A DNA stretch of 64,000 bases, from NCBI GenBank assembly GCA_964630235.1, contig CAZVUO010000001.1, positions 254,588-318,587 on the forward strand. Reading direction: 5' to 3'. Source of the stretch: an uncultured bacterium (lineage in GTDB: Bacteria; Oederibacteriota; JAAXVQ01; JAUVAV01). The stretch's first letter is position 1. Every line of letters begins with the position of its first letter. The translations under genes were made by a program, and so were the position numbers. Under the pieces are notes generated by a model. The model had not been told where the DNA came from. It did not search any database and saw nothing but the letters and a program-made list of their open reading frames with translations. Shown piece by piece: positions 1 through 47,040 of this stretch.

Positions 1-3000
1 GATGTTCGTGGTCGCCAGGGCGTCGTCCATGTCCACCGTGTTCTTGGCACCCGTGGCGTCCACCTTGGCTTTGACGCCCCGGAGTTCTCCGCCCTTGAAA
101 TAGAAGCCGAACGCATCGTAATTCATATCGCCCTGCCACTGGCCGCCGCCCTTGTCCGTGAAGGTTTCGTGGGCTTTGGTCCAGTAGCCCTTGTTCTGGG
201 CCGTGCCGGTGTAGGTGTGCAGCACGCCCATGCTGTCGGTCCAGGTCTTGACGTTCCACCATTTATCCATGAGCAGCTTACCGTCGCGGGCTGAAGTGCC
301 TTCGATCTTGTCCACCCTGGCTCCGGCGTAGGTATAAGTAAAGGAACCGACACCGCCTGAACTGGTCAGCATCTTCTGCGTGGACTGGTTCCAGGTGGTG
401 ATGCCCTTGTCATCCTCGAAGGTCACGTACTCATTGACGCCGCCGAAAACATAATTGACGCTCTCGCCGTCTTCGCGCGTGCCAGTGCCCGTGGTCACGT
501 ACTGGCCGTCATTCTGGAAAGTGATCGTCTGGTTCATGGTGTCGGTGTTGTTCAGGACCCGCTGGGTCAAAACACCGGTGTCCGTATAGGTTTCGGTGCC
601 CGAGCCGTTGTGCAGGCCCATATAATCCGTGTAGGTGATATTGGCGGAGGTGTGGAAGCGTCCTTCCGGGCTGTCGGTATAGTTCCAGCTTATGGATGAA
701 CCGTCGTTATTCCGGCGGTTGCGGGTGAAGATGGCCGAATTTTCATAGCCCTCATCCATGGTCCAGGATTCCGTGCCCTGATTGTCCGTCACCGTGGCCG
801 CGATCGGACCGCGGGAGTTGAGGGTGTAGGAGAAAGTTGCGGTGGTGATGTACGTGGCCTGGGTGTAGGTGACCCGGGATACGGTCGGCAGATACATGTA
901 CTTGTCCGGATCCGGAGACGGGACAATGCCGGACATCTGCACGCTCATGGTATGCCGGTCGCCGCTGAACTCCTGCGTCCCGGCCGTGGGGTTGCCGTCC
1001 GCGTCGCGTCCGGTGTACTCGGTCACATGGATGACCTCGCCGGTCGGATATTTGTAGTCTTCGGTCCAGTTCTTGTATTCCACGCCGTGGACGTCGTAGT
1101 GGATGACTTTGTTTTCGGAATTCTGGACATTGGTCCGGGTTTCCGTCTGTTTGAAGCCTGTCCAGTCGTTATTGACAAAAGTACTGGTATAGATTTCCGT
1201 CTTTTTCTTCTTCCCGTCCTGCTTGTCACGCTGGGTGCGGGAGGCGGTCTTGCGCCCATGCATGTCATAGGCGGTGTTGTCTTCGCGGTACCCTCCCTCC
1301 CCTGTGCTGACCGTGCTCGTGGTCATGCCCGTGGCGGTATTGAATCCATAGGTGGTGTGCGTGACATTGCCGTCTTTGTCCGTGTCGTCGCTCTCCTTCA
1401 CCACGCCGTAAGTGGCGTCGTATTCATTCTTCGTGCTCCCGCGCCCGTTGCACTTGACCATGTTCGATGAGGTGTTCATGCCCGTCGAGGAATCCACGTT
1501 GTACGTGGATTCTGTATGCTGCATGCCATTGGCGCCGTAGATGCTGTCGGTCACGGAATTGGTGTTGAATCCGTCCGCATCGTAGTTCGTCATGGTCGTG
1601 GAATGGCCGGGGCTCAGGGAACGCGTCTGCGCCGCATTGCCGGTCCAGTGCACGGCTCCTGTGCGGTAGATCTCGGAATAGCGCGCGCCTGCCGCGGATC
1701 CATAGAAATTCTCGTTCTGCTTATGCAATCCGGCGGCCGGCAGGCCGTTTTCGTCCGAATACGTCCAAGTGCGGGACAGGCCGCTGGTGGTGTACTTGGA
1801 ACGGCGGATGCCCGTGTTCTGGTTCCAATCCTTGGTCCAGGTATAGCTGGTGCGGCCGGCAGTGGGGCCGATGGTGCCGTTGCTGACCGAATACATCTCC
1901 ACGCCCATCTGGTTATAATCCGAGGTGCTGTCGCCCAGGCCCGTGGTGGTGTACGTCTGCTTCTTCGATCCCGTGAAGTCGTAAATCGTGGAGACCGTGG
2001 TGGTGGAGGTGCGGGCGCGGGAAGCCCCGTAGGTCGTGTCGGTCGTCATGCTGCGGGCAATGCCGTTGATGTCGTGATTGGTGGTGGTGGTGGACAACAG
2101 CTGGCCGCCCAAACGCGAGTAGGACAGGGCCACGGACCGCTGGGTGAATCCGGTCGCGCTGTTGTAGGTCATGGTCGAGTTCGTGCGGGAAGCCAGTCCG
2201 TAAGAGGAAATATTCTCGCTGCGGATGGCCAGACCGTGCCCGTCGTAATTGGTCATGGTCGTGCCGTTGCTGTTGACGGAGGTGGATTGGATCAGTTTGC
2301 CGGTCGTCTGGTTCACCACGTAGGTAATGTTGTTGTTGACCGAATACCCCAGTGTCCAGGCCGCGTTCATGACCGTTATCGCATCGGTCTGCGTGCCAGT
2401 GTCCGAGGTGTAGTTGGTCCAGGTCTCGGACAGCGTGCCGCCTCCGCCGTAGGACCGGCTGTACGTTTCCATGTTGAGGCCGGTGTTGGTATTGGCGTCA
2501 ACATTTGTTTCCACGTTGCGATTGCCTTCGCCGGTGGCGTATTTATTATAGGTCAGCATGTGCTTGGCCACGCCGTACTTGGCGTCGAAGGCATCGGTGG
2601 TGGTGGTGGACAGGCCGTTGTCAGCCACCGTCCGGATATTCAAGCCCGTATCGTGGCTGGCGGTGATGGTCGTGTTGGTGGTCTGCGCCAGGGTGGGCAG
2701 GAAGTCCGTCACGCTGATGGAGCTGGTCGCCGTTCCATAACTGCCCTCGAAGAAGGTCGTGGTGGTGCGGTGCGATGTAACCGCGATGGTTTTTTCGTTC
2801 AGGCCGGTCTGGCGGTTGGCGGTGATGGTCGTGGTGATATCCCGCTCGCCCAGCACGCCCCACTGATTGTGCGCGACTGAGCGTTCGGCCACGCCGTAGG
2901 TGTCTCTGCTGTAATAGGTGTCGGTGGTCCCATACTGGTTGGTGGCGAAGGTGTGCTCGTTCAAACCGCTGTCGCGGTTGGCGGTAATGGTGGTGTTGGT

Positions 3001-6000
3001 ATCCATGGTGTAACCCAGCCCGAAATTGTTCACACTGTGCGAACGTTCCGCCACGCCATACCCGTCGCCCGAATACCAGGTTTCGGTCAGGCCATAGGTG
3101 TTCCTGCCCGAGGTAAACGTATTCAGACCGCTCCAATTATCGGCCGTGATCGTGGTGTTGGTGTCCCGCGTATACCCCAGGCCGTAGTTGTTGAGGGAGT
3201 GCGAACGCTGGGCCGTGCCATAGGTGTCCTGCTTGAACCAGGTTTCGGTGGTGCCATAGGCGTTGACTGAACTGGTGAAAGTGTTCAAGCCGCTCCACAG
3301 GTCCACCGTGATGGTGGTGTTGGTGTCGCGGGTCGCGCCCAGGCCGTAATTGTTCACGGCATGCGACCGCTGCGCCACGCCGTACGAGTCCCCGGTATAC
3401 CAGGTCTCGGACGTTCCATACCGGTTGACGGCGCTGGTGTAGGTGTTCAGGCCGCTCCACCGGTCCGCCGTGATCGTGGTGTTGGTGTCGCGGGTCGCGC
3501 CCAGGCCGTAATTGTTCACGGCATGCGACCGCTCCGCCACGCCGTAGCTGTCCCGCGAATACCAGGTTTCGTTGGTTCCGTAAGCATTCCGCGCGAACGT
3601 GTACTCATTGAGGCCGTTCCACCGGTTCGCCTGGATGGTGGGTGTGTCCGTGTCACGCGTCGCGCCCAAGCCGAAATTATTCACCGCGTGCGACCGCGTC
3701 GCCACGCCGTACGTGTCCTGCGCGTACCAGGTCTCGGTCCGGCCGTACGCACTGACTGCATGGGTATAGGTATTCAGGCCGTTCCACCGGTCCGCCGTAA
3801 TGGTCGTGTTGGAGTCCCGTCCGGCGCCCACGCCAAAATTGTTCACGGAGTGGGAGCGTTCCGCTACGCCGTACGTGTCCTGGGAGTACCAGGTTTCGGT
3901 GGTGCCATAGGCATTGGTCCCGGTCGTGTAAACGTTCAGGCCGCTCCAGGTGTCGGCGGTGATGGTGCTGTTGGTGTCCCGCGTGGCGCCCAGCCCGAAA
4001 TTGTTCATGCTGTGGGACCGTTGGGCCGTGCCATAGGTGTCCTGTGAATACCAGGTCTCCGTGGTGCTGTAGGCATTGACCGAACTGGTGAAGGTGTTCA
4101 AGCCGCTCCAGCGGTCCACGGTGACGGTGGTGTTGGAATCGCGCGTGGCGCCCAGACCAAAGTTGTTCACACTGTGCGAGCGTTCGGCCACGCCGTAGGA
4201 GTCCGATGCATACCACGTTTCGGTCCGGCCGTAGGCGTTGGTCGCGTTGGTGTAGGTGTTCAGACCGTTCCAGCGGTCCGCCGTAATCGTCGTGTTCGTG
4301 TCGCGGCTGGCGCCCAGCCCGTAGTTATTCACGCTGTGCGACCGTTCCGCCACGGCATACGTATCCTGGCTGTACCACGTTTCCGTCGTGCCATAGGCGT
4401 TGACGCCTACGGTAAACGTGTTCAGGCCGTTCCAGCGGTCCGCGGTGATGGTGGACGTGGTGTCGCGGGTCGCGCCCAGCCCGTAATGGTTGATGCTGTG
4501 CGACCGCTCCGCCACGGCATACGTATCCTGGCTGTACCACGTTTCCGTCGTGCCATACGCATTGCTGGCGATGGTGTAGTCATTGAGGCCGTCCCACCGG
4601 TCCGCGGTGACAGTCGTGTTCGTGTCGCGCGTCGCGCCCAGGCCAAAGTTGCTCAGACTGTGCGACCGTTCCGCCACGCCGTACGTGTCCTGCGAATACC
4701 AGGTCTCGGTCGTGCTATAGGCGTTGACGGCATTGGTGTAGGTGTTCAGGCCGTTCCAGCGGTCCGCCGTGATGGTCGTATTGGTGTCGCGCGTCGCGCC
4801 CAGCCCGAAGTTGTTCAGGCTGTGCGACCGTTCCGCCACGCCGTAGCTGTCCTGCGAATACCAGGTCTCGGTCCGGCCGTAGGCATTGGTCGCGTTGGTG
4901 TAGGTGTTCAGGCCGTTCCAGCGGTCCGCCGTGATCGTCGTATTGGTGTCGCGCGTCGCGCCCAGCCCGAAGTTGTTCAGGCTGTGCGACCGTTCCGCCA
5001 CGCCGTAGCTGTCCTGCGAATACCAGGTCTCGGTCCGGCCGTAGGCATTGGTCGCGTTGGTGTAGGTGTTCAGGCCGTTCCAGCGGTCCGCCGTGATCGT
5101 CGTATTGGTGTCGCGCGTCGCGCCCAGCCCGAAGTTGTTCAGGCTGTGCGACCGTTCCGCCACGCCGTAGCTGTCCTGCGAATACCAGGTCTCGGTCCGG
5201 CCGTAGGCATTGGTCGCGTTGGTGTAGGTGTTCAGGCCGTTCCAGCGGTCCGCCGTGATGGTCGTATTGGTGTCACGCGTCGCGCCCAGCCCGAAGTTGT
5301 TCAGACTGTGCGACCGTTCCGCCACGCCGTAGCTGTCCTGCGAATACCAGGTCTCGGTCACGCCATACGCATTCACGGCATTGGTGTAGGTATTCAGCCC
5401 GTTCCAATTGTCGGCCGTAATGGCCGTGGTGGTGTCGCGGCCGGCGCCGACGCCAAAGTTATTGACGGAATGCGACCGTTCAGCCGTGCCAAAGCTATCC
5501 TGCTTGTACCAGGTCTCGGTCCGTCCGTAGGCGTTGGTGGCCACGGTATAATCGTTCAGTCCGTTCCAGCGGTCCGCCGTGATCGTCGTATTGGTGTCGC
5601 GCGTCGCGCCCAGCCCGAAGTTGTTCAGGCTGTGCGACCGTTCCGCCACGCCGTAGCTGTCCTGGGTGTACCAGGTTTCCGTCGTGCCGTAGGCATTGGT
5701 GGCGAAGGTGTACGTGTTGAGCCCGCTCCAGCGATCCGCTTGGACCGTGGTGTTGGTGTCGCGCGTCGCGCCCAGCCCAAAGTTGTTCAGGCTGTGCGAC
5801 CGTTCCGCCACGCCGTAGCTGTCCTGTGTATACCAGGTTTCCGTCGTGCCATAGGCATTGGTGGCGAAGGTGTAGTCGTTCAAGCCGTTCCAGCGGTCCG
5901 CCGTGATGGTCGTGTTCGTGTCGCGCGTCGCGCCCAGCCCAAAGTTGTTCAGGCTGTGCGACCGCTCGGGAACGCCGTAGGTGTCGCGGGCATACCAGGT

Positions 6001-9000
6001 TTCGGTCATGCCATAGGCGTTGGTGGCCACGGAATATGTATTGAGGCCGTTCCAGGTGTCGGCGGTGACTTGGGTCGTGGTGTCGCGCGTCGCGCCCAGA
6101 CCATAATTATTGACCGTATGGGTGCGTTCCGTGACGCCATATGAATCTTGCGTAAACCAGGTCTCGGTCATGCCGTAGGCGTTGGTGCCGATGGAGTAGT
6201 CGTTCAACCCGTTCCAGCGATCCGCGGTGATGACCGTGTTCGTGTCCCGCGTGGCCCCGATGCCGAAATTGTTCAGGCTGTGGGACCGCTCCGCCACGCC
6301 ATACGTATCGTCCGTGTACCAGGTCTCGGTCATGCCGTACGCGTTCACGGCGTGGGTGTATTCATTCAGGCCGTCCCACCGGTCCGCCTGGATGGTGGTA
6401 TTCGTGTCACGGGATGCGCCGATGCCAAAATTGTTGAGGCTGTGCGACCGCTCCGCCACGCCGTACGTGTCCTCCGAATACCAGGTTTCCGTGATGCCGT
6501 ATGCATTGCTGGCAAAGGTATACTCATTCAGGCCGTCCCACCGGTCCGCCTGGATGGTGGTCGTGGTGTCGCGGGTCGCGCCCAGACCAAAGTTGTTCAA
6601 ACTGTGCGACTGCTCCGCCACGCCGTACGTGTCCTGCGAATACCAGGTCTCCGTCGTACCGTAGGCATTGGTGGCAAACGTGTACTCGTTTAAACCGTCC
6701 CACCGGTCCGCGGTGATGACCGTGTTCGTGTCCCGCGTGGCTCCGATGCCGAAATTGTTCACCGCATGCGACCGCTCCGCCACGCCGTACGTGTCCTGTG
6801 AATACCAGGTCTCGGTCATGCCGTAGACATTGGTCGCGATGGTGTAATCGTTCAGACCGTCCCACCGGTCCGCGGTAATGACCGTGTTGGTGTCCCGCGT
6901 GGCCCCGATGCCGTAGTTGTTCACCGCATGCGACCGCTCCGCCACGCCGTACGTGTCCTGCGAATACCAGGTCTCGGTCACACCGTAGGCGTTTTGAGAG
7001 ATCGTATAATCATTCAGGCCGTCCCACCGGTCCGCGGTAATGACCGTGTTGGTGTCCCGCGTCGCGCCCAATCCGTAGTTATTCATCGCGTGCGACCGTT
7101 CCGCCACGCCGTAGGTGTCGTCGGAGTACCAGGTTTCGGTCGTGCCGTAGGCATTGGTGCCGAAGGTGTATTCGTTCAGCCCGTCCCACCGGTCCGCCTG
7201 AATGGTCGTCAGGTTGTCGCGGGTCGCGCCCAGGCCAAAGTTGTTCAGGCTGTGCGACCGCTCCGCCACGCCGTACGTGTCCTGCGAATACCAGGTCTCC
7301 GTCGTACCGTAGGCATTGGTGGCAAACGTGTACTCGTTTAAACCGTCCCACCGGTCCGCCTGAATGGTGGTCATGGTATCCCGCGTCGCGCCCAAGCCGA
7401 AGTTATTCACCGCGTGGGACCGCTCCGCCACGCCATACGTGTCTTCCGAGAACCACGTCTCGGTCATCCCGTAGGCGTTGGTTGCCAGGGTGTACTCATT
7501 TAAACCATCCCACCGGTCTGCCTGAATGGTCGTAGCGGTATCCCGGGTCGCTCCAATGCCGAAATTGTTCACCGCGTGCGACCGCTCCGCCACGCCGTAG
7601 CTGTCCTGTGAATACCAGGTCTCGGTCACGCCATAGGCATTGGTCCCAATGGTGTAATCATTCAACCCATCCCAGCGGTCCGCCGTGATGATGGTGTTGG
7701 TGTCCCGCGTGGCGCCGATGCCGTAGTTGTTCACCGCATGCGACCGTTCCGCCACGCCGTAGGTGTCGTCCGAGTACCAGGTTTCCGTCATGCCGTACGC
7801 ATTCACGGCATGCGTGTAATTGTTCAACCCATCCCAGCGATCCGCGTCAATGGTCGTGTTCGTGTCCCGCGTCGCGCCCAACCCGAAATTGTTAAGGGAA
7901 TGCGAGCGCACCGCCACCCCGTAGGAATCTTCCGAGAACCAGGTTTCGGTGGTGCCATAGGCATTGGTGCCGAAGGTGTATTCGTTCAGGCCGTCCCACC
8001 GGTCCGCCTGAATCGTGGTTTGGTTGTCGCGGGTCGCACCCAAGCCGAAGTTGTTCACGGCGTGCGACCGTTCGGCCACGCCGTAGGTGTCTTCCGAGAA
8101 CCAGGTTTCGGTCATGCCATAGGCGTTTACGGCCATGGTATACTCGTTCAAACCGTCCCACCGGTCCGCCTGAATGTCCGTGGTGGTGTCCCGCGTCGCG
8201 CCAATACCGAAGTTGTTCATGGCGTGCGACCGTTCCGCCACGCCGTACGTATCCTGCGAGTACCAGGTCTCGGTCGTGCCATAGACGTTCACGGCATACG
8301 TGTAATCATTTAAGCCGTCCCACCGGTCGGCCGTAATGGTGGTATTCGTGTCCCGGGTGGCGCCGATGCCGAAGTTATTCAGGCTGTGAGAACGTTCGGC
8401 CACGCCGTACGTGTCGTCGGAATACCAGGTCTCGGTCGTGCCGTATGCATTGGTGGCCAGGGTATAGTCGTTCAAGCCGTCCCATTGTCCGGCCTGAATG
8501 ATGGTGTTGGTGTCCCGGGTGGCCCCCAGTCCATAGTTATTCACGCTATGGGAACGTTCGGCCACGCCGTAGCTGTCTTGTGTGAACCAGGTTTCAGTCA
8601 TGCCGTACGCATTGACGGCCCGGGTATATTCATTCAGGCCGTTCCAGGTATCCACCTGAATCGTCGTGTTGGTGTCGCGCGTCGCGCCCAGACCATAATT
8701 ATTCAAGCTGTGTGACCGTTCCGCCACGCCGTAGCTGTCCTGGGTATACCAAGTTTCCGTCATGCCATAGGCATTTTCGGCCAGCGTGTGCTCGGTCAAT
8801 CCATCCCACGTGTCGGTATCAATGTCCGTGGTCGTATCCCGCGTGGCGCCAATCCCGTAATTATTCAGGCTATGAGACCGGTCCGCGACGCCATAAGAGT
8901 CCTCCGTGTACCAGGTCTCCGTCATGCCGTAATCATTCGTGGCTTTGGTATAGATGTTCAGACCGTTCCAGCGGTTGGCATCAATCTGCGTCGTGGTATC

Positions 9001-12000
9001 CCGCGTGGCGCCAATGCCGAAGTTATTCAGGCTGTGCGAACGCTCGGCCACGCCGTAGCTGTCCGTGGAATACCAGGTCTCCACGGTGCCGTAGGCGCTC
9101 TCCGAGAACGTCCGGATGTTCAAGCCGTTGAAGGTGTTGACCTCCATATTGCCTTCTTTGATCCAGCTGTGCCGCGTCGCACCCAACCCGAAGTTGTTGT
9201 TCGTATCCGAGGACTTGGCCACGCCGTACGCGGCGTCGTCATACCACGTTTCCACGGTGCCGTACGCGCTTTCCGAGAACGTCCGGATGTTCAGGCCGTT
9301 CCAGGTATTGACCTCCATATTGCCCTTGGAAATCCAGCTGTGCCGCGTCGCGCCCAACCCGAAGAAGTTATTCGTATCCGAAGAGTGGGCCACACCGTAA
9401 TCCTTGTCATCGTACCAGGTTTCGACGGTGCCGTAGGCGCTCTCCGAGAACGTCCGGATGTTCAGGCCGTTCCAGGTGTTGACCTCCATATTGCCCTTGG
9501 AAATCCAGCTGTGCCGCGTCGCGCCCAACCCGTAATTATTGTTGGTGTCCGAGGACTGCGCCACGCCGTACTGCTGATCTTCATACCACGTCTCAACCGT
9601 GCCGTATTCGCTCTCCGAGAACGTCCGGATGTTCAAGCCGTTCCAGGTGTTGACCTCCAGATTGCCGTCGCTGATCCAGCTGTGCCGGGTCGCCCCCAGC
9701 CCGAAGTTGTTGTTCGTATCCGAGGAACGCGCCACGCCGTAAGACACGTCATCGTACCAAGTTTCGACCGTTCCGTACGCGCTCTCCGAGAAGGTGTGCT
9801 GGTTCAAGCCGTTCCAGGTATTGACTTCCATGTTGCCTTCTTCGATCCAGCTGTGCCGCGTCGCGCCCAACCCGAAGTTGTTGTTCGTATCCGAGGACTT
9901 GGCCACGCCATAGGTTTCGTTTTCATATTGGGTTTCCGTCGTGCCGTACGCGCTTTCGGAGAACGTGCGCTTGTTCAATCCGTTATACGGATCGACTTCC
10001 ATTTCCCCTTCCTTGATCCAGCTGTGCCGGGTCGCCCCCAGTCCGAAGTTGTTGACCGTATCCGAGGCCTTGGCAATGCCGTACTGCGCGTCGTCGTACC
10101 AGGTTTCCACCGTGCCGTACGCGCTCTCCGAGAACGTCCGGATGTTCAGGCCGTTCCAGGTGTTGATCTCCATTTTGCCTTCCTTGATCCAGCTGTGCCG
10201 GGTCGCCCCCAGCCCGAAGTTATTGTTCGTATCCGAAGCCTTGGCCACACCGTGCTGTTTATCTTCGTACCAGGTTTCCACCGTGCCGTACGCGCTCTCC
10301 GAGAAGGTGTGCTGGTTCAAGCCGTTCCAGGTATTGACCGCCATATTCCCGCGCTTAATCCAGCTGTGCTGGGTGGCGCCCAGGCCGAAATTATTATTGG
10401 TGTCCGACGCGACCGCCACGCCATATTGGGCGTCCTCATACCAAGTCTCCGTGGTTCCGTACTCACTCTCCGAGAACGTCCTCTGGTTCAGGCCGTTCCA
10501 GGTGTTGACCTGCATGTTGCCTTCTTTGATCCAGCTGTGCCGCGTGGCGATCAATCCGAAATTGTTGTTCGTGTCCGAAGCCTTGGCCACGCCGTACTGG
10601 CCGTCGTCGTACCAGGTCTCGGTCGTGCCGTACGCGCTCTCCGAGAACGTCCGGATATTCAATCCGTTGTAGGTGTTGACCTCCATATTGCCTTCTTTGA
10701 TCCAGCTGTGCCGCGTCGCACCCAGGCCGAAGTTGTTGTTCGTGTCCGAAGCCTTGGCCACGCCGTACTGGCCGTCGTCGTACCAGGTCTCGGTCGTGCC
10801 GTACGCGCTCTCCGAGAACGTCCGGATGTTCAAGCCGTTCCAGGTGTTGACCTGCATATTGCCTTCTTTGATCCAGCTGTGCCGCGTCGCGCCCAACCCG
10901 AAGTTGTTATTCGTGTCCGAGGCGACTGCCACGCCAAACTGGCCGTCTTCGTACCAGGTCTCGGTCGTGCCGTACGCGCTCTCCGAGAACGTCCGGATGT
11001 TCAAGCCGTTCCAGGTGTTGACCTGCATATTGCCTTCTTTGATCCAGCTGTGCCGCGTCGCGCCCAACCCGAAGTTGTTGTTCGTGTCCGAGGCGACTGC
11101 CACGCCGTACTGGCCGTCTTCGTACCAGGTCTCGGTCGTGCCGTACGCGCTCTCCGAGAACGTCCGGATGTTCAGGCCGTTCCAGGTGTTGACCTCCATG
11201 TTCCCGTTTTTGATCCAGCTGTGCCGCGTCGCGCCCAACCCGAAGTTGTTATTCGTGTCCGAGGCCCTGGCCACCCCGTACTGGCCGTCGTCGTACCAGG
11301 TCTCGGTCGTGCCGTACGCGCTCTCCGAGAACGTCCGGATATTGAGGCCGTTGTAGGTGTTGACCTCCATGTTGCCTTCTTTGATCCAGCTGTGCCGCGT
11401 CGCGCCCAACCCGAAGTTGTTGTTCGTGTCCGAGGATTTGGCCACGCCGTACTGGCCGTCTTCGTACCAGGTCTCGGTCGTGCCGTATGCGCTCTCCGAG
11501 AACGTCCGGATATTGAGGCCGTTGTAGGTGTTGACCTCCATGTTGCCTTCTTTGATCCAGCTGTGCCGCGTCGCGCCCAGGCCGAAGTTGTTCTTGGTAT
11601 CCGAGGATTTGGCGACGCCGTGTTCCTCATCGTCGTACCAGGTCTCGGTCGTGCCGTACGCGCTCTCCGAGAAGGTCCGGATATTCAAGCCGTTGAAAGT
11701 GTTGACCTCCATGTTGCCTTCGGAAATCCAGCTGTGCCGTGTCGCGCCCAACCCGAAGTTGTTCTTGGTATCCGAGGATTTGGCGACTCCGTGTTCCTTA
11801 TCGTCGTACCAGGTTTCGGTCGTGCCGTACGCGCTCTCCGAGAAGGTCCGGATGTTCAGGCCGTTCCAGGTGTTGACCTCCATGTCGCCGTCTTTGATCC
11901 AGCTGTGCCGCGTCGCGCCCAGGCCGAAGTTGTTGTTCGTATCCGAAGCCTTGGCCACGCCAAACTGGCCGTCTTCGTACCAGGTCTCGGTCGTGCCGTA

Positions 12001-15000
12001 CGCGCTTTCCGAGAAGGTCCGGATGTTCAAGCCGTTGAAGGTGTTAACTTCCATGTTCCCGTCTTTGATCCAGCTGTGCCGCGTCGCGCCCAGGCCGAAG
12101 TTGTTGTTCGTATCCGAAGCCTTGGCCACGCCAAACTGGCCGTCTTCGTACCAGGTCTCGGTCGTGCCGTACGCGCTTTCCGAGAAGGTCCGGATGTTCA
12201 AGCCGTTGAAGGTGTTAACTTCCATGTTCCCGTCTTTGATCCAGCTGTGCCGCGTCGCGCCCAGGCCGAAGTTGTTGTTCGTATCCGAAGCCTTGGCCAC
12301 GCCAAATTGGCTGTCGTCATACCAGGTTTCAGTCGTGCCGTACGCGCTCTCCGAAAGCGTCCGGATGTTCAGGCCATTGAAGGTGTTGACCTGCAAATTG
12401 CCCTCTGCGATCCAGCTGTGCCGCGTCGCGCCCAGGCCGAAGTTGTTTTTGGTATCCGAGGAGGTGGCCACGCCGTACTGACTGTCTTCGTACTTGGTTT
12501 CGGTCGTGCCGTAGGCGCTCTCGGAAAGGGTGCGCCGGGTCAGACCGTTCCAGGTGTTGACTTCCATATTGCCTTCACTGATCCAGGAATGGCGCGTCGC
12601 GCCCAACCCAAACTTGTTGTTGGTATCCGACCGCTTGGCCACGCCGTACGCCTCATCTTCATACCAGGTCTCGGTCGTGCCGTAGGCGCTTTCCGATAAT
12701 GTCCGCTTGTTCAGTCCGTTGTCGGTATTGACTTCCAGGTTGCCGTCGCCAATCCAGCTGTGCCGCGTCGCGCCCAGGCCGAAGTTGTTGTTCGTGTCCG
12801 AAGATTTGGCCACGCCAAATTGTTTGTCGTCATACTTTGTCTCGGTCGTGCCATAGGCACTCTCCGAGAACGTGCGGATGTTCAGGCCGTTGAAGGTGTT
12901 GACCTGCAGGTTGCCTTCCTTGATCCAGCTGTGCCGGGAAGCACCCAAACCAAAATTGTTCTTTGTGTCCGAGGCTTTGGCGACCCCGTACTGGCCGTCC
13001 TCGTACCAGGTCTCGGTGGTGCCGTATTCGCTGCGCGACAGCGTATGCTGATTCAGTCCATTCCAAAGGTTCACCGTGAGATCGCCCTTGCGGATCTGGC
13101 TCTGGCGGGTGGACCCCAGGCCGAAATAATTTTCGGTTATCGAACTGATGGCCACGCCATAGGTGCCGCCTGCGGTCGTGTCGAATTCAGTCATGGTCAT
13201 GCCGTACTTGTTCGCGGCCTTGGTGCGCTTGTTCAAGCCGGTATTGATATCCGCTTCAATCGCCGTGGCGGTGTCCCGCGTAAAGCCAAGACCGAAATTG
13301 GTCACCGCCCGGCTGGAAACCGCAATGCCGTACACCCCGCCCTGCTCCACGTCGTAGTGGGTCTCGGTCTTGCCGTACTCATTCTTGGCAAGGGTATGGC
13401 GCGTGAGACCGTGGCGGGTATCCATTTCCACTTCGTTTTCGGTATACCGGGTCGCCCCCAAACCGTAGTTGTTGCTGATCTGCTGCAGGCTTTCCAGACC
13501 GGTCACCGGGTCGAAATTGGTGCTGTGCGTGGTGCCATAGTTGCTCTTGGACAGACGGTCCGTGGTCATGCCCGTGTCGGAATTGTAGGTGGCCACCGTA
13601 AACGACTCGCGGGAGGCTCCCAACCCGATGGTCGCGATCCGCAGGCTCTCGACCGCATCGCCGTGAATGTCATAGGTGCTGGTGGTCTGTCCCAGACGGT
13701 CGGTGGTCACGTTGGTCTGCAGGCGGCCGTGGCCGTCGTAGGCGTAGTCCTCCGTCACTTTGTACCGTCCGAAAAGCACGCCATAATTGTCATTCTGCTT
13801 CTGCTCCTGCACCAGCGCGTCCCGGTCCATGGTTTTTTCGACCGTGGTCAGCAGATTTTTACTCTTAGAGACCGTCATAAAGCCCTGGTCGTCAAATTCG
13901 TTAACCGTGAGGGTTTCGCGCGAGAACTCGACGCCGTAGTGGTCGGTGCGGAAGGATTCGATCGGCAGACCATCAATATTAAATTTGGTGACCGTGGAGC
14001 CGCGCAGATCGGTCTCCTTGCTCATGGAAAGGAATCCGTCGTTGTCGTACTCGTTCACGGTCCACTGGTCGCGGGCATGGCCGTAGAGGTTGTGCCGGAA
14101 GGAAACCGCGACCAGTTCGTCAATGTTGAACCAGTTCTGGGTGGTCCCGTTCTCATCCTCGGTTTTGCTGTAGACCATGTACGCGTTGGCGTCGTACTCG
14201 TAGGTGGTGCGCTCTTCCCGCGGGAACCCGTATTTCTTCACGCGGCGGCTTTCCTTCATCAGGCCGTCTTTATCAAAGGTATTGTAGGTTGTGCCCCGAT
14301 CGTCGTCGGTAATGCTGCTGACCAGTTCGCCGTTCAGATAATCATAGGTGGTCTTCTTGCGTTTGGGATAACCGTGAATGTCAACCCGTTCGCTTTCCGT
14401 CATCAGACCGTCGTGGTCGAACTTGTTGATCGTGTAACCGCGGCTGTCCGTCTGCCGGCTCTCGGTGAGATCGCCGCCCGCATCGTAAATGTTCTCCACC
14501 CAGTGTTCCCGGGGGAATCCGTGTTTGTTGATGCGGTGGGTCTTCTTGGCTTGCTCGTTCTGGTCAAATTCAGTGATCGTTTCGCCCTTCACGTCCCGGG
14601 AAACGCTTTTAATTAGAATGCCGTCCTTGTAGGTCCGCTCCTCGTCCGACCGCCGGGGGAATCCGATGGTATTGATGCGCGTGATCTTTTCCGGATCGCC
14701 GTGGCTGTTATAGAAAGTGTGCGTCTCCCCTTTTTTGTCAATCATCAGTGATTGCGACAGCACGCCTTTTTCATACTGGAAATCCGTCTGCTGGGTGCGC
14801 CCCCACTTGTCCGTCTGCAGGGATTGCAGCGGCTTGCCGGCGGCGTTGTACAGGGTCTCGGTCACGCCCATGGGGCCTTCTTCGGTGCTCCTGACCAGGT
14901 GCTCGCCCGCATATTCATAATCCGTGGTGATGACCTTGCCGTTGTACTTGCTGTAAATGACCTTCTCCGGCTGGTCGCTCTGGGAATCCCGGTAAATGGT

Positions 15001-16524
15001 GGTCTTGATCCCGAAGGGGGTAACGGTATAGGACACCCGTTTCCCGTCCTGGGTGGCGCCGTAGGTGGTTACCTCCATCACCCCGCTGTTCTTGATCATG
15101 ACCTTGCGTTCGGCCAGCTTGGTTTTCTGGTCGTACTCGGTCAAGGTGCGGCTTTTGTAATCCCGGGTGACGCTGGAAACCATGTTGTTGTTGTCGTCAT
15201 ACGTATATTCCGTGACTTCGTCCCCAACTTGGCTGCGGATCCGGTTGCCCTTGCCGTCGTAGGCGTAGTCCGTCCGCTGCCCGTTGCTGTCGGTCTTGCT
15301 CAACAGGTGGCCTTTGCCGTCAAAGGTCTTCTTCACCGTATCCGTGAAGACTTTGCCGCCGAAGGAGTACGTGACGTATTCAATCGCCGAAACAACGTTT
15401 CCGTTTTCATCCAAGATATTGCTGATCTTGGTCTTGCGGCCTTCCTCCTCCAGCCCGACGACCCGGCCGGCCTCGTCGTAATACGTCACCTTCTCCTTGG
15501 TTTTTGATCCATCGGCCGGTTTGAGTAATTCACGCCGGGCGGTAATCCGCCCGTCCACGTTGACCTCGTAGGTATAATTGTGCTCGCCGTCCTTGTCCTG
15601 CACCCTGACCACGCGGCCCTGGTCGTCGTAATCCTTGACCGTGATGTCCTCGATCATGCCGCTAGCGGTGGCGACCTGCTTGATCTCCTTCTTTTGCGCC
15701 AGAACGCCCTTTTCGTTCAGGATGTTCTCATAGGTGGTCTTCTGGCCGTTCTCGATCTGTTCCACCATCTGGTCGTTCTCGTATTTCTTGATCGTGATAT
15801 TTCCCGCCGTGTCCCGTTCTGTGGTCTGGATCTTCTCCCCTTGCTGGTTGTACAGCGTTTCAATGTCCGTGCGGATGTTGTTCTCGTCAATGCGGGCGAC
15901 CACTTCGCCGTTCACGGGGTCCAGGATCATGCGGTTGGTTTTATTCGTGGCGAGATCGGTTTCGGTGTAGCCGACGGTCTTGCCCTTGTCGTTCTTGACG
16001 TAGTTGGTGAATATTTTGGTCCCCTGGGAATCCGTGGCTTGGACCGGATTGCCGTCGTCGTCAAAGATCTTCGTGACCACGCCGGCCGCGCTGCGTTTCA
16101 CCATTTTTTGCAGTTTCCCGTTGGCGCCGCGGAAATACTGGTAGCGCGCCAGGACACCGCCGGTGGCGTCCCGCTCCTCCGACGGCATCCCATCTTCGTA
16201 AAGGGTAACTTTGCCGTAGGGATCACGCACTTCCGTTAGCTGTCCCTTCTCGTTATACTTACGCACCTCGCCGCTCAACAGCACGACCGTGATTTGGGGT
16301 TGGCCGCTGACATCCATGACCGTCGTGCTTTTTACTTTTTTGCCTTGCTCATCCAACTGCTCCAGTATCTGAGGCAGGAGGCGCTCCTCGGCGCTACTGG
16401 CGGCAGAGGACATAGAAACCCCTACAAAGAGGAGCAGCGTCCCCAGTAGGGCGAGTGTCCCCAGCCAGGCGGTTTTATTCCACAGTCCAAAATGCATCCG
16501 TTCTTGACCAGTGATGGTAATCAT
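1..16524 (-). CDS. Giant RHS/YD-repeat family surface or secreted protein. The 3' end is cut by the window edge (at least 5508 codons present).
   Basis: Hand translation of the minus frame whose codon first bases fall on coordinates divisible by 3. ATG at 16524 is preceded by AAAGGGGG 8 nt upstream. The N-terminus MITITGQERMHFGLWNKTAWLGTLALLGTLLLFVGVSMSSAASSAEE is a hydrophobic signal/anchor. Classic YD motifs occur, e.g. TDYAYDGKGNRIRSQVGDEVTEYTYDDNNNMVSSV at about 15170-15280. The frame was re-checked at 13983, 11982, 4863 and 1-60 and stays open. No minus ORF in this frame appears in the track, as expected when the stop lies outside the window. Confidence 0.85.
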   Translation of the reverse strand, partial: MITITGQERMHFGLWNKTAWLGTLALLGTLLLFVGVSMSSAASSAEERLLPQILEQLDEQGKKVKSTTVMDVSGQPQITVVLLSGEVRKYNEKGQLTEVRDPYGKVTLYEDGMPSEERDATGGVLARYQYFRGANGKLQKMVKRSAAGVVTKIFDDDGNPVQATDSQGTKIFTNYVKNDKGKTVGYTETDLATNKTNRMILDPVNGEVVARIDENNIRTDIETLYNQQGEKIQTTERDTAGNITIKKYENDQMVEQIENGQKTTYENILNEKGVLAQKKEIKQVATASGMIEDITVKDYDDQGRVVRVQDKDGEHNYTYEVNVDGRITARRELLKPADGSKTKEKVTYYDEAGRVVGLEEEGRKTKISNILDENGNVVSAIEYVTYSFGGKVFTDTVKKTFDGKGHLLSKTDSNGQRTDYAYDGKGNRIRSQVGDEVTEYTYDDNNNMVSSVTRDYKSRTLTEYDQKTKLAERKVMIKNSGVMEVTTYGATQDGKRVSYTVTPFGIKTTIYRDSQSDQPEKVIYSKYNGKVITTDYEYAGEHLVRSTEEGPMGVTETLYNAAGKPLQSLQTDKWGRTQQTDFQYEKGVLSQSLMIDKKGETHTFYNSHGDPEKITRINTIGFPRRSDEERTYKDGILIKSVSRDVKGETITEFDQNEQAKKTHRINKHGFPREHWVENIYDAGGDLTESRQTDSRGYTINKFDHDGLMTESERVDIHGYPKRKKTTYDYLNGELVSSITDDDRGTTYNTFDKDGLMKESRRVKKYGFPREERTTYEYDANAYMVYSKTEDENGTTQNWFNIDELVAVSFRHNLYGHARDQWTVNEYDNDGFLSMSKETDLRGSTVTKFNIDGLPIESFRTDHYGVEFSRETLTVNEFDDQGFMTVSKSKNLLTTVEKTMDRDALVQEQKQNDNYGVLFGRYKVTEDYAYDGHGRLQTNVTTDRLGQTTSTYDIHGDAVESLRIATIGLGASRESFTVATYNSDTGMTTDRLSKSNYGTTHSTNFDPVTGLESLQQISNNYGLGATRYTENEVEMDTRHGLTRHTLAKNEYGKTETHYDVEQGGVYGIAVSSRAVTNFGLGFTRDTATAIEADINTGLNKRTKAANKYGMTMTEFDTTAGGTYGVAISSITENYFGLGSTRQSQIRKGDLTVNLWNGLNQHTLSRSEYGTTETWYEDGQYGVAKASDTKNNFGLGASRHSWIKEGNLQVNTFNGLNIRTFSESAYGTTETKYDDKQFGVAKSSDTNNNFGLGATRHSWIGDGNLEVNTDNGLNKRTLSESAYGTTETWYEDEAYGVAKRSDTNNKFGLGATRHSWISEGNMEVNTWNGLTRRTLSESAYGTTETKYEDSQYGVATSSDTKNNFGLGATRHSWIAEGNLQVNTFNGLNIRTLSESAYGTTETWYDDSQFGVAKASDTNNNFGLGATRHSWIKDGNMEVNTFNGLNIRTFSESAYGTTETWYEDGQFGVAKASDTNNNFGLGATRHSWIKDGNMEVNTFNGLNIRTFSESAYGTTETWYEDGQFGVAKASDTNNNFGLGATRHSWIKDGDMEVNTWNGLNIRTFSESAYGTTETWYDDKEHGVAKSSDTKNNFGLGATRHSWISEGNMEVNTFNGLNIRTFSESAYGTTETWYDDEEHGVAKSSDTKNNFGLGATRHSWIKEGNMEVNTYNGLNIRTFSESAYGTTETWYEDGQYGVAKSSDTNNNFGLGATRHSWIKEGNMEVNTYNGLNIRTFSESAYGTTETWYDDGQYGVARASDTNNNFGLGATRHSWIKNGNMEVNTWNGLNIRTFSESAYGTTETWYEDGQYGVAVASDTNNNFGLGATRHSWIKEGNMQVNTWNGLNIRTFSESAYGTTETWYEDGQFGVAVASDTNNNFGLGATRHSWIKEGNMQVNTWNGLNIRTFSESAYGTTETWYDDGQYGVAKASDTNNNFGLGATRHSWIKEGNMEVNTYNGLNIRTFSESAYGTTETWYDDGQYGVAKASDTNNNFGLIATRHSWIKEGNMQVNTWNGLNQRTFSESEYGTTETWYEDAQYGVAVASDTNNNFGLGATQHSWIKRGNMAVNTWNGLNQHTFSESAYGTVETWYEDKQHGVAKASDTNNNFGLGATRHSWIKEGKMEINTWNGLNIRTFSESAYGTVETWYDDAQYGIAKASDTVNNFGLGATRHSWIKEGEMEVDPYNGLNKRTFSESAYGTTETQYENETYGVAKSSDTNNNFGLGATRHSWIEEGNMEVNTWNGLNQHTFSESAYGTVETWYDDVSYGVARSSDTNNNFGLGATRHSWISDGNLEVNTWNGLNIRTFSESEYGTVETWYEDQQYGVAQSSDTNNNYGLGATRHSWISKGNMEVNTWNGLNIRTFSESAYGTVETWYDDKDYGVAHSSDTNNFFGLGATRHSWISKGNMEVNTWNGLNIRTFSESAYGTVETWYDDAAYGVAKSSDTNNNFGLGATRHSWIKEGNMEVNTFNGLNIRTFSESAYGTVETWYSTDSYGVAERSHSLNNFGIGATRDTTTQIDANRWNGLNIYTKATNDYGMTETWYTEDSYGVADRSHSLNNYGIGATRDTTTDIDTDTWDGLTEHTLAENAYGMTETWYTQDSYGVAERSHSLNNYGLGATRDTNTTIQVDTWNGLNEYTRAVNAYGMTETWFTQDSYGVAERSHSVNNYGLGATRDTNTIIQAGQWDGLNDYTLATNAYGTTETWYSDDTYGVAERSHSLNNFGIGATRDTNTTITADRWDGLNDYTYAVNVYGTTETWYSQDTYGVAERSHAMNNFGIGATRDTTTDIQADRWDGLNEYTMAVNAYGMTETWFSEDTYGVAERSHAVNNFGLGATRDNQTTIQADRWDGLNEYTFGTNAYGTTETWFSEDSYGVAVRSHSLNNFGLGATRDTNTTIDADRWDGLNNYTHAVNAYGMTETWYSDDTYGVAERSHAVNNYGIGATRDTNTIITADRWDGLNDYTIGTNAYGVTETWYSQDSYGVAERSHAVNNFGIGATRDTATTIQADRWDGLNEYTLATNAYGMTETWFSEDTYGVAERSHAVNNFGLGATRDTMTTIQADRWDGLNEYTFATNAYGTTETWYSQDTYGVAERSHSLNNFGLGATRDNLTTIQADRWDGLNEYTFGTNAYGTTETWYSDDTYGVAERSHAMNNYGLGATRDTNTVITADRWDGLNDYTISQNAYGVTETWYSQDTYGVAERSHAVNNYGIGATRDTNTVITADRWDGLNDYTIATNVYGMTETWYSQDTYGVAERSHAVNNFGIGATRDTNTVITADRWDGLNEYTFATNAYGTTETWYSQDTYGVAEQSHSLNNFGLGATRDTTTTIQADRWDGLNEYTFASNAYGITETWYSEDTYGVAERSHSLNNFGIGASRDTNTTIQADRWDGLNEYTHAVNAYGMTETWYTDDTYGVAERSHSLNNFGIGATRDTNTVITADRWNGLNDYSIGTNAYGMTETWFTQDSYGVTERTHTVNNYGLGATRDTTTQVTADTWNGLNTYSVATNAYGMTETWYARDTYGVPERSHSLNNFGLGATRDTNTTITADRWNGLNDYTFATNAYGTTETWYTQDSYGVAERSHSLNNFGLGATRDTNTTVQADRWSGLNTYTFATNAYGTTETWYTQDSYGVAERSHSLNNFGLGATRDTNTTITADRWNGLNDYTVATNAYGRTETWYKQDSFGTAERSHSVNNFGVGAGRDTTTAITADNWNGLNTYTNAVNAYGVTETWYSQDSYGVAERSHSLNNFGLGATRDTNTTITADRWNGLNTYTNATNAYGRTETWYSQDSYGVAERSHSLNNFGLGATRDTNTTITADRWNGLNTYTNATNAYGRTETWYSQDSYGVAERSHSLNNFGLGATRDTNTTITADRWNGLNTYTNATNAYGRTETWYSQDSYGVAERSHSLNNFGLGATRDTNTTITADRWNGLNTYTNAVNAYSTTETWYSQDTYGVAERSHSLSNFGLGATRDTNTTVTADRWDGLNDYTIASNAYGTTETWYSQDTYAVAERSHSINHYGLGATRDTTSTITADRWNGLNTFTVGVNAYGTTETWYSQDTYAVAERSHSVNNYGLGASRDTNTTITADRWNGLNTYTNATNAYGRTETWYASDSYGVAERSHSVNNFGLGATRDSNTTVTVDRWSGLNTFTSSVNAYSTTETWYSQDTYGTAQRSHSMNNFGLGATRDTNSTITADTWSGLNVYTTGTNAYGTTETWYSQDTYGVAERSHSVNNFGVGAGRDSNTTITADRWNGLNTYTHAVSAYGRTETWYAQDTYGVATRSHAVNNFGLGATRDTDTPTIQANRWNGLNEYTFARNAYGTNETWYSRDSYGVAERSHAVNNYGLGATRDTNTTITADRWSGLNTYTSAVNRYGTSETWYTGDSYGVAQRSHAVNNYGLGATRDTNTTITVDLWSGLNTFTSSVNAYGTTETWFKQDTYGTAQRSHSLNNYGLGYTRDTNTTITADNWSGLNTFTSGRNTYGLTETWYSGDGYGVAERSHSVNNFGLGYTMDTNTTITANRDSGLNEHTFATNQYGTTDTYYSRDTYGVAERSVAHNQWGVLGERDITTTITANRQTGLNEKTIAVTSHRTTTTFFEGSYGTATSSISVTDFLPTLAQTTNTTITASHDTGLNIRTVADNGLSTTTTDAFDAKYGVAKHMLTYNKYATGEGNRNVETNVDANTNTGLNMETYSRSYGGGGTLSETWTNYTSDTGTQTDAITVMNAAWTLGYSVNNNITYVVNQTTGKLIQSTSVNSNGTTMTNYDGHGLAIRSENISSYGLASRTNSTMTYNSATGFTQRSVALSYSRLGGQLLSTTTTNHDINGIARSMTTDTTYGASRARTSTTTVSTIYDFTGSKKQTYTTTGLGDSTSDYNQMGVEMYSVSNGTIGPTAGRTSYTWTKDWNQNTGIRRSKYTTSGLSRTWTYSDENGLPAAGLHKQNENFYGSAAGARYSEIYRTGAVHWTGNAAQTRSLSPGHSTTMTNYDADGFNTNSVTDSIYGANGMQHTESTYNVDSSTGMNTSSNMVKCNGRGSTKNEYDATYGVVKESDDTDKDGNVTHTTYGFNTATGMTTSTVSTGEGGYREDNTAYDMHGRKTASRTQRDKQDGKKKKTEIYTSTFVNNDWTGFKQTETRTNVQNSENKVIHYDVHGVEYKNWTEDYKYPTGEVIHVTEYTGRDADGNPTAGTQEFSGDRHTMSVQMSGIVPSPDPDKYMYLPTVSRVTYTQATYITTATFSYTLNSRGPIAATVTDNQGTESWTMDEGYENSAIFTRNRRNNDGSSISWNYTDSPEGRFHTSANITYTDYMGLHNGSGTETYTDTGVLTQRVLNNTDTMNQTITFQNDGQYVTTGTGTREDGESVNYVFGGVNEYVTFEDDKGITTWNQSTQKMLTSSGGVGSFTYTYAGARVDKIEGTSARDGKLLMDKWWNVKTWTDSMGVLHTYTGTAQNKGYWTKAHETFTDKGGGQWQGDMNYDAFGFYFKGGELRGVKAKVDATGAKNTVDMDDALATTNI
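2600..9075 (-). repeat. In-frame tandem array of 162-bp (54-aa) units inside giant gene 1, about 40 copies.
   Basis: The word ggtgtcgcgcgtcgcgcc recurs at 4783 and 4945 (162 bp apart). Unit consensus is YSQDSYGVAERSHSLNNFGLGATRDTNTTITADRWNGLNTYTNATNAYGRTETW. It shares the NNFGLGATR and AYG-TETW cores with the 57-aa unit. The switch between unit types is at about 9070-9080. Confidence 0.9.
9075..13650 (-). repeat. In-frame tandem array of 171-bp (57-aa) units inside giant gene 1. About 23 regular copies (9075-13090) plus degenerate copies up to about 13650.
   Basis: The word cttggccacgcc recurs at 11950 and 12121 (171 bp apart). Unit consensus is YEDGQFGVAKASDTNNNFGLGATRHSWIKDGNMEVNTFNGLNIRTFSESAYGTTETW. 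Older copies (NYGLGATRYTENEVEMDTRHGL...) are visible toward 13650. Confidence 0.9.
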
Positions 16525-16594: not shown

Positions 16595-16623
16595 AGTATA
16601 TCACACGAAAATAGGCATTACAA
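16595..16623 (-). promoter_or_regulatory. Sigma70-type promoter of giant gene 1 with an extended -10.
   Basis: Minus strand reads TTGTAA - 17 nt (TGCCTATTTTCGTGTGA) - TATACT. The TG of the extended -10 is present. The predicted TSS is about 64 nt upstream of the ATG at 16524. Confidence 0.55.
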
Positions 16624-18646: not shown

Positions 18647-18650
18647 GAAA

Positions 18651-18678: not shown

Positions 18679-18701
18679 CTCCTGTGTTCACTCCGTCCGT
18701 T

Positions 18702-44802: not shown

Positions 44803-44872
44803 GGGAGAATTATAGCACAAGGGTCCGTGTTTGGTGGAGGCCGACCCGGACTTAAGTTCCTCCCAGGGGCCC

Positions 44873-44995
44873 CATGGAGCCCCCCGGGCAAAGCCCGGGG
44901 TACCAACTGCACCTCTCGTTACCTCCTCTGGGCGACATCCCCGGAGCAACCATTCCGCATTCACCCCCAAGGCAAGGGGTGCCCTGCGGAGAGGA
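44873..44995. repeat. Conserved intergenic element, copy A (paired with 50014..50119).
   Basis: 83 of 94 aligned nt are identical to copy B. It contains the hairpin CCCCGGGC-AAA-GCCCGGGG. It lies between the divergent lnt copy 2 and the transketolase N-subunit gene. Confidence 0.7.
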
Positions 44996-45210
44996 TGGCC
45001 GGGGTTCCCTCCCGCAGCAAAAATCATATCCCGCAATTCCATCCCTGGAGCGGTCTTTGGGGTCGCTGAAGCCCGGGGAATTGTGCGGTGGGATCGTTTT
45101 TGGACTCCCTCCGCTTTTCGTTGGGGCGTCCCCGGCCAGGGGCTTTTAACGCTTGACAAAGCCCGGAGGGGTCTAGTACGATTCTCCGCATATTTTCCGG
45201 AGGTTTTTCC

Positions 45211-46044: not shown

Positions 46045-46065
46045 TTTTCGGCGAGGAATTGTTCC

Positions 46066-47001: not shown

Positions 47002-47040
47002 GATTTTCCAGCCTGCTGCTTTCCTGCTAAACACCCGCCA

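Follow-up and report, generated by a model that had tools for sequence, protein, structure and literature searches.

A YD-related double-hairpin repeat array in a predicted giant exported protein of an uncultivated FCPU426-related bacterium

What does a bacterium make with eleven kilobases of in-frame tandem repeats? This question is raised by a stretch of 64,000 nucleotides from an uncultured bacterium (contig CAZVUO010000001.1, positions 254,588 to 318,587; hereafter the window), in which a first-pass annotation, made from the letters alone, had noticed repeats of two periods, 171 and 162 bp. Both periods were recovered by Tandem Repeats Finder, and they lie in a single open frame on the minus strand, which belongs to a partial giant gene that we call ORF A (ORF, open reading frame). 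We consider, with a probability of about 0.55, that ORF A encodes a giant Sec-exported structural protein of the envelope or cell surface, which is built on a beta-sheet of the YD type and does not serve as a toxin.

The repeat array and its gene

The frame carrying the repeats is uninterrupted on the minus strand from 16590 to position 1 (5530 codons in a six-frame scan) and exits the window at its left edge. The program-made ORF list held only fragments over the repeats, as the true gene leaves the window. The parts of the gene that can be distinguished are as follows.

1..16524, minus strand: ORF A, partial giant gene; start Met at 16524, 5508 codons visible in the window
16390..16524, minus strand: signal-peptide-like N-terminus MITITGQERMHFGLWNKTAWLGTLALLGTLLLFVGVSMSSAASS, without a lipobox Cys; cleavage site putative
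14671..16293, minus strand: canonical YD repeats (frame amino acids 100-640), by Pfam RHS_repeat and TIGR01643
13027..14670, minus strand: transitional super-units of ~48-58 amino acids (YGFPRE... plus YxYD hairpin plus FDxDGL hairpin), by sequence reading and iterated hidden Markov model (HMM)
9094..13026, minus strand: 23 units of 57 amino acids (171 bp), consensus YGTTETWYEDGQYGVAKASDTNNNFGLGATRHSWIKEGNMEVNTWNGLNIRTFSESA, by Tandem Repeats Finder and motif anchoring
2773..9093, minus strand: 39 units of 54 amino acids (162 bp; one unit of 55 amino acids), consensus YGTTETWYSQDTYGVAERSHSLNNFGLGATRDTNTTITADRWDGLNTYTFATNA, by Tandem Repeats Finder and motif anchoring
1300..2772, minus strand: degenerate C-terminal units (frame amino acids 4607-5097), by iterated HMM matches
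1..1299, minus strand: start of the family-specific conserved C-terminal region, rich in Ser, Thr and Asn, by family comparison

Tandem Repeats Finder reported 23.1 copies of the 171-bp period (9071-13026, score 4589) and 37.5 copies of the 162-bp period (3014-9096, score 4555). Anchoring on the motif YG.TETW gave 23 intervals of 57 residues followed by 38 of 54 and one of 55, all in frame, so that the well-formed units total 62, or 77-79 when degenerate ones found by an iterated unit profile are counted. The switch from the 57 to the 54 class is indeed abrupt and falls between nucleotides 9094 and 9093, slightly away from the position of about 9075 first proposed. The extent first given, about 2600-13650, was too short at both limits, since the iterated family profile finds degenerate units from frame amino acid 766 (nucleotide ~14295) to 5097 (nucleotide ~1300). 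The four sequence cores quoted in the first-pass annotation are common to both classes, which align over their full length except for one indel of three residues after NNFGLGATR (RHSWIKEGNMEVN versus RDT---NTTITAD). The mean identity is 84% inside the 57 class, 75% inside the 54 class and 47% between them. On the plus strand, long antisense ORFs run across the array at 8788-12699 (1303 amino acids), 4174-6144 (656 amino acids) and 12760-14616 (618 amino acids); they are artefacts of the repeat codon pattern, which could mislead gene callers.

The array belongs to a small family. An exhaustive search with the unit profile, an approach already proposed in the first-pass annotation, recovered 31 family proteins among 1.84 billion representatives, while a word-based homolog search with seven units recovered just 2 proteins. 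Members are named "YD repeat-containing protein" by JGI and "hypothetical protein" by NCBI. The ortholog in the candidate division FCPU426 genome MAG080, which came out of a genome scan, lies on a 1.13-Mb contig, shows 76% identity in its best segment, and has the same layout, with 23 units of 57 residues and then 38 of 54. A third ortholog, P0003, starts at the same MITITGQ as ORF A, shares 90% identity with the window protein over its N-terminal region and is 6209 amino acids long. The MAG080 ortholog runs ~655 amino acids beyond the position matching the window edge. From these orthologs, the full ORF A product is predicted to be ~6,160-6,210 amino acids long, and its last ~655 amino acids probably lie beyond the window.

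The full-length members have a signal peptide and an N-terminal region of ~950 amino acids (42-55% identity), a central array whose period depends on the lineage, and a C-terminal region of ~1,500 amino acids (33-42% identity) with canonical YD repeats at its end. This architecture is shared by P0003-P0007, P0009, P0011 and P0033, with array periods of 54 residues in P0006, 57 in P0003 and P0004, 63/70/56 in P0007 and 71-72 in P0010/P0033 and P0011. The members combine the signal peptide and these two end regions with an array of the form YGxTxTxYD..GVAxxS..NNFGLGAxR..NGLN; the family-wide consensus is YGTTxTxYDxDxYGxAxxSxxxNxxGLxxxRxTxTxIxxNxxTGLNxxTxAxN, in which two Gly are conserved at 96%. 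An N-terminus of the ORF A type is kept throughout the family, with signal peptides lacking a lipobox, and the signal segment is the sole hydrophobic segment in the full-length members P0003, P0005 and P0006; likewise, no transmembrane segment was found in ORF A beyond the signal. The protein region encoded at 1..1299 of the window contains no known domain of Pfam or NCBIfam, and its identity between family members is 33-42%. The family is rare, restricted to one lineage and conserved in architecture. Some small secreted proteins of 376-413 amino acids, P0002 (locus L001, 10001-11233), P0022 and P0023, are made up of a signal peptide, a few YD-like transitional units and 3-4 array-type units, and resemble the giant protein in miniature.

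With regard to the age of the array, the ratio of nonsynonymous to synonymous substitution (dN/dS) between units is 0.15 in the 57 class (dS 0.80) and 0.17 in the 54 class (dS 1.17), and recent copies with at least 95% DNA identity are found only among units 5-7, 12-13 and 47-50. The low dN/dS, the near-saturated dS and the scarcity of recent copies together indicate that the array is old and that every unit is under purifying selection. The common cores and the full-length alignment agree with the earlier proposal of one module family. The two amplifications it assumed must be old events, considering the near-saturated synonymous divergence and the fact that the units have positional orthologs. 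The units of the 54 class correspond by position to those of MAG080 (0.845 on the diagonal versus 0.745 off it; permutation p = 2e-4) and those of the 57 class do so as well (p = 2e-4).

The comparison with P0003 divides the array in two: its units 1-23 are orthologous by position to the window units (p = 2e-4), whereas for units 24-59 such a signal is missing (p = 0.30). Between shared landmarks the unit count is 62 in the window, 61 in MAG080 and 61 in P0003, though the P0003 array consists of ~60 units of 57 residues and ~2 of 54, versus 23 and 39 in the window. One lineage may therefore have swapped ~37 units of one class for the other while keeping the total, with the caveat that the P0003 count comes from the assembly alone. 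Whole-unit gene conversion in P0003, which was considered for units 24-59, was not adopted, since the same lack of positional signal fits replacement. We regard the period classes as two blocks of a single array, each of them old and homogenised internally, whose boundary can shift from one lineage to another. Separately, contigs of a strain diverged by ~1.5% link distant units (7156/12872 and 5604/11533) with a few extra letters between them, which hints at another arrangement of units in that strain.

The array was also followed in public sequence data. The window sequence turns up in at least 20 metagenomes from bioreactors, sludge or digesters. In four independent metagenomes from different studies the array flanks were found at 99% identity or higher, and in each of them one contig spans the switch (8716-9122). 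Short-read contigs end at the array borders, 3343 and 12774, as repeats would predict, and the word depth inside the array is ~1-2.8 times that of the flanks.

Relation to YD repeats and the predicted fold

The first-pass annotation had suspected beta-hairpin repeats distantly related to YD repeats, with a super-unit that it did not recognise, and both points hold. At the N-terminal side, frame amino acids 100-480 match Pfam RHS_repeat (E 9.5e-8 and 4.6e-15), and the ORF A protein matches TIGR01643 YD_repeat_2x (E 2.3e-7). The RHS_repeat signal weakens to E 0.4-1.9 in the transitional units, and the array of 54 and 57 residues gives no Pfam RHS_repeat match even at E<=10. At the other end, the C-terminus of the MAG080 ortholog matches RHS_repeat (E 1.2e-11) and, in the PDB, the Rhs structures Tse15, RhsA and Tse5 (E 3e-10). 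Thus Pfam and TIGR01643 recognise YD repeats only in the flanks. The array unit itself gave nothing meaningful in NCBIfam and no match at E<=10 when its profile was compared with PDB sequences; MORN_2 approached it at E = 3 only.

The transitional super-units grade into the array unit and show how the two may be related. Their pattern is YGFPRE - TTYEYD.. - ..TFDKDGLMKES. In the HMM alignment, the YxYD hairpin falls onto EVNTWNGLN, the FDxDGL hairpin onto TETWYEDGQYGVAKAS (TETWYEDGQYG), and YGFPRE onto NNFGLGATR of the array unit. From this profile alignment, we read the super-unit as two YD repeats, not three, plus a specialised connector. Three ordinary RHS_repeat matches per unit would have left nothing new to explain; what was found is two hairpins of the YD type and the conserved NNFGLGATR connector.

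Structure prediction of several units, which had also been suggested from the start, agrees with this reading at the local level. AlphaFold2 modelled eight units of 54 residues (units 24-31; 7798-9093), from an alignment of units of the same protein together with blocks from P0005, P0006 and P0012, with a mean predicted local distance difference test score (pLDDT) of 93.3 and a predicted template-modelling score (pTM) of 0.86; the five models scored 92-93. Each unit in the model has four strands (e.g. residues 2-8, 16-23, 32-39 and 46-52), and its connector forms a short helical turn. A Foldseek search of the PDB with this model placed Rhs, teneurin or Tc proteins at all of ranks 1-33 (E 9e-12 to 2e-6), comprising Rhs effectors (Tse5, RhsA, Tse15, RhsP, VgrG-Rhs), teneurins and a teneurin-like protein, and BC components of Tc toxins. 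An earlier prediction of six units of 57 residues, made with an alignment of the protein's own units only, reached a pLDDT of 57.8 and its five models disagreed; with this first, low-confidence model, MORN-repeat proteins led the search of a viral fold library.

The super-unit of 54-57 residues would thus fold as four antiparallel strands, which pair into two hairpins that turn at W-Y-x-x-D-x-Y-G and at W-N-G-L-N, and the conserved N-N-F-G-L-G-A-T-R connector would add one helical turn. It is in the strand following this connector that the two period classes differ, by three residues. Successive units are predicted to extend one continuous antiparallel beta-sheet, as in the walls of the Rhs, Tc-toxin and teneurin shells. 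The formation of a continuous sheet by the super-units is predicted with high confidence, and a local architecture of the YD hairpin type is well supported. Overall, the sheet may coil into an open spiral tube or stay extended as a ribbon. By our estimate from general beta-sheet geometry and knowledge of Rhs shells, a flat ribbon of 62 units would measure ~120 nm, and a spiral of Rhs-like radius ~20 nm.

Neighbouring genes and the possible role of the protein

The genes around ORF A give another source of clues. The features next to it are as follows.

16595..16623, minus strand: promoter-like site 5' of ORF A (consensus scan only)
16985..18646, plus strand: Lnt paralog (apolipoprotein N-acyltransferase, 553 amino acids; LNT_N E 8e-27, CN_hydrolase E 7e-25), between ORF A and ORF B
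18646-18683, minus strand: GC-rich terminator-like hairpin of 17 pairs, directly 3' of the ORF B stop codon
18702..42839, minus strand: ORF B, polytopic membrane giant of 8045 amino acids, upstream of ORF A
43183..47034, minus strand: protein of 1283 amino acids with a 760-residue N-terminal part fused to Lnt (LNT_N and CN_hydrolase matches), upstream of ORF B

ORF B has several clusters of hydrophobic or transmembrane segments, and no Pfam match including SecA_DEAD, which is likewise absent from ORF A. It also contains ~19 diverged repeats of ~100 amino acids (amino acids ~2800-4700), a GGGKT...DEVH motif and long stretches that resemble coiled coils. A SecA-like motor, as in Omnitrophota giants, was considered for ORF B but found no support, as ORF B has no Pfam match and reaches only E 0.5 to a DEAD-box helicase. 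A word-based search found just 5 homologs of ORF B in 5.8 billion proteins. The C-terminal 2000 amino acids of ORF B are 36-40% identical to the giants directly upstream of P0012 and P0005. The window, L008 and L010 each carry a giant of the ORF B type directly upstream of a gene of the ORF A type. P0005, too, has a CN_hydrolase gene and a Lnt gene at its sides; such paralogs stand beside the giant pairs in the window and in L008 (8073-9728 and 23662-25356). The orthologs P0006, P0033 and P0007 occupy one syntenic slot in three genomes, with mlaEFD-radA-ispD-ispF on one side of the giant and murA-like and his genes on the other. In MAG080 a third giant (L005, 15981-23726) has an N-terminus resembling that of ORF B (35% over ~330 amino acids); the matching part of the genome studied here falls beyond the window.

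The rest of the window encodes OmpA-family, type IX secretion tail, GAF, Memo and GT2 proteins. The Logan contigs L003 and L004 have an identical Memo protein with CutA1 and GAF neighbours (compared with 43183-48651 of the window) and run on into a transketolase gene, not into the Lnt fusion and ORF B. The block of giant genes may thus vary between close strains. An ORF of 311 amino acids on the minus strand (17756-18691) was dismissed, as neither a record nor a domain corresponds to it and the terminator of ORF B overlaps it; the real gene there is the plus-strand Lnt. A foreign origin of the giant genes was also dropped, since the GC content at third codon positions of ORF A (0.78-0.85) matches that of housekeeping genes (0.82-0.89); the lower total GC of the giant genes is due to their amino-acid composition.

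In the reading that we favour, one minus-strand gene would give a Sec-exported protein of ~6,200 amino acids in an uncultivated, FCPU426-related bacterium of anaerobic digesters and bioreactor sludge. The protein would have three parts, namely the N-terminal YD region of ~950 amino acids, the array of 62 units and the C-terminal region of ~1,500 amino acids ending in YD repeats, and it would act as a structural element of the envelope or surface, an open ribbon or tube with a size that depends on how many units it has. Such a role, with length given by unit number, is what we infer from the absence of catalytic or toxin domains and from the gene context, and cooperation with the membrane protein ORF B of 8,045 amino acids and with the Lnt paralogs is possible. 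A bolder version, in which an open-ended ribbon or nanotube of YD sheet lies in the FCPU426 envelope, its unit number (61-62) is under selection, and ORF B and the Lnt set export it, anchor it or modify it with lipid, appears speculative and rather doubtful to us.

Several observations weigh against the structural interpretation or weaken parts of it. When hhalign set the unit against the canonical YD region, it gave the expected register at E 0.16, which is not significant, and the sequence link to YD repeats therefore rests on the gradient within the protein. The alignment behind the eight-unit model consists partly of other registers of the same array, so that its confidence may be inflated, though the alignment of own-protein units gave a pLDDT of just 58. 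While the best structural match is strong locally (E 9e-12, probability 1.00), the template-modelling score (TM) to Rhs shells is only 0.15-0.23 with a root-mean-square deviation of ~20 A, and engineered flat single-layer OspA sheets also match, ranked after the YD proteins. The unit count of P0003 is that of its assembly. Contigs from runs labelled metatranscriptome cover genes and intergenic DNA evenly, some contigs being ~100 kb long, and these runs probably contain DNA. Finally, the functional interpretation draws on the lack of catalytic and toxin domains and on synteny.

Among other explanations, an adhesin or aggregation factor would keep the same fold and take binding, not scaffolding, as its primary role: faces of the sheet rich in Thr, Asn and aromatic residues would attach to polysaccharide, particles or partner cells within digester granules, and the array would serve as an extender. 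This is a genuine but minor possibility. It is in line with surveys that class most giant bacterial proteins other than non-ribosomal peptide and polyketide synthases as surface or attachment proteins (PMC11573180), as well as with a protein that has a signal peptide but no membrane anchor, the composition of the array (15.6% Thr, 10.5% Asn) and the sludge or biofilm habitat, but Pfam and NCBIfam revealed no lectin, no Ig-like domain and no other adhesion domain, and the "core" orthologs lie among envelope-biogenesis genes and not in accessory regions. It is also conceivable that ORF A and ORF B form a two-gene system, in which ORF B exports, anchors or assembles the YD-like sheet and the Lnt-like acyltransferases modify one component. 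The recurrence of the giant pair in the three loci with related C-terminal modules, the adjoining Lnt/CN_hydrolase paralogs in two of them, and the transmembrane clusters and GGGKT...DEVH motif of ORF B speak for such a system. We nevertheless regard it as unlikely, because P0006, P0033 and P0007 have no neighbour of the ORF B type within 10 kb, the NTPase-like motif of ORF B is not significant, a promoter-like site precedes ORF A itself and a terminator-like hairpin follows ORF B, and signal peptides of the ORF A type lack the lipobox.

A polymorphic toxin of the Rhs type, or an oversized closed cocoon for cargo, deserves consideration because the YD repeats of either end resemble Tse15, RhsA and Tse5 in sequence, all top structural matches are Rhs, Tc or teneurin shells, and JGI names family members after the YD repeat. 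Rhs proteins are defined by their N-terminal domain, by YD repeats and by a C-terminal domain, toxic and variable, after DP(I/L)GXXGGX5YX8D(P/S)XG(L/W), an aspartyl autoproteolysis motif between the Rhs and C-terminal domains (PMC11461821). This motif, whether in full or as its first half, was absent by regular expression from the window protein, MAG080, P0003 and every family member, and NF041261 RHS_core scored only 24 bits versus a cut-off of 2000. Moreover, Pfam and NCBIfam detected no toxin family in ORF A-type proteins; no PAAR, VgrG or TcA partner was found among the Pfam-scanned genes of the window or of loci L006-L011; and no small immunity-like gene follows, the gene 3' of the MAG080 ortholog being another giant ORF (>2,582 amino acids). 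The C-terminus is conserved (33-68%) instead of variable, ~4,300 amino acids of sheet are several times what a cocoon needs, and TM to cocoons is ~0.2. Lacking a cleavage motif, a toxin domain and a polymorphic C-terminus, the ORF A protein is therefore very unlikely to be a toxin container. That the array results from misassembly, or from an expansion that drifts neutrally and has no function, seems hardly credible: the short-read assemblies, broken at both array borders, cannot confirm the copy number, but two independent genomes have the structure of 23 plus 38/39 units with unit-by-unit orthology, contigs cross the switch in four runs at the array word depth given above, and dN/dS is 0.15 at near-saturated dS.

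Comparison with known systems

If the structural interpretation is true, ORF A would make it possible to test whether the count of repeats determines how long a protein is, would open a first functional access to the cell surface in a candidate phylum that only sequences have revealed, and would give protein engineers a well-behaved natural beta-sheet repeat. If in addition the bolder version with the selected unit number and the dedicated partner set holds, it would represent a non-toxin use of the bacterial Rhs fold and a new cell-surface architecture. A profile of the unit would let annotation pipelines recognise the array and put an end to antisense ORF calls of 1,300 amino acids. The family should be of moderate to good interest for workers on repeat proteins, Rhs proteins and giant proteins.

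Giant extender adhesins, such as SiiE and the RTX adhesins LapA and MpIBP, consist of immunoglobulin-like (Ig-like) domains of ~100 amino acids with a C-terminal signal for type I secretion. ORF A resembles them as a secreted giant in which a long tandem array sets the length between conserved ends, but it has an N-terminal Sec signal, and neither Big or Ig-like repeats of ~100 amino acids nor an RTX or type I secretion signal was found in the ORF A family by Pfam and NCBIfam. The single-layer sheets of MORN-repeat proteins and of engineered OspA extension mutants are likewise extended sheets of beta-hairpins, though they have no sequence relation to the unit, other repeat lengths and TM of ~0.2-0.26.

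Giant proteins of Omnitrophota are predicted to form antiparallel beta-helix "tubules" of more than 1000 amino acids, which are hollow and were likened to Rhs repeats (West-Roberts et al. 2023, bioRxiv, 10.1101/2023.11.21.568195). These tubules bear regularly spaced exterior alpha-helices or paired sheets and occur in proteins with transmembrane and SecA_DEAD domains (10.1101/2023.11.21.568195). They share with ORF A a predicted, very long repetitive antiparallel beta structure in giant proteins of uncultivated bacteria, and ORF B recalls their theme of many transmembrane segments plus a divergent NTPase. Compared by description, ORF A differs in having only a signal peptide and a helix of one turn per unit.

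The closest known systems are the Rhs/YD shells (RhsA, Tse15, Tse5 and RhsP; TcB-TcC; teneurins). Their global superposition on the model is poor (TM 0.15-0.23), and ORF A differs from them by the fixed double hairpin of 54-57 residues with the NNFGLGATR connector, which RHS_repeat and TIGR01643 miss, by a sheet of ~4,300 amino acids versus roughly 700-1,500 in a cocoon, and by the absence of the cleavage motif, toxin, immunity gene and PAAR/VgrG/TcA partner. The likeness consists of the canonical YD repeats at both ends of ORF A and, in the model, the same kind of continuous antiparallel hairpin sheet. To our knowledge, YD/Rhs repeats are known almost only as toxin-carrying closed shells (Rhs effectors and Tc toxins) or as the shell of animal teneurins. 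What appears to be new in ORF A is a predicted, YD-derived array, free of toxin machinery, in which a regular double-hairpin unit of 54-57 residues, absent from the databases, would continue over ~4,300 residues.

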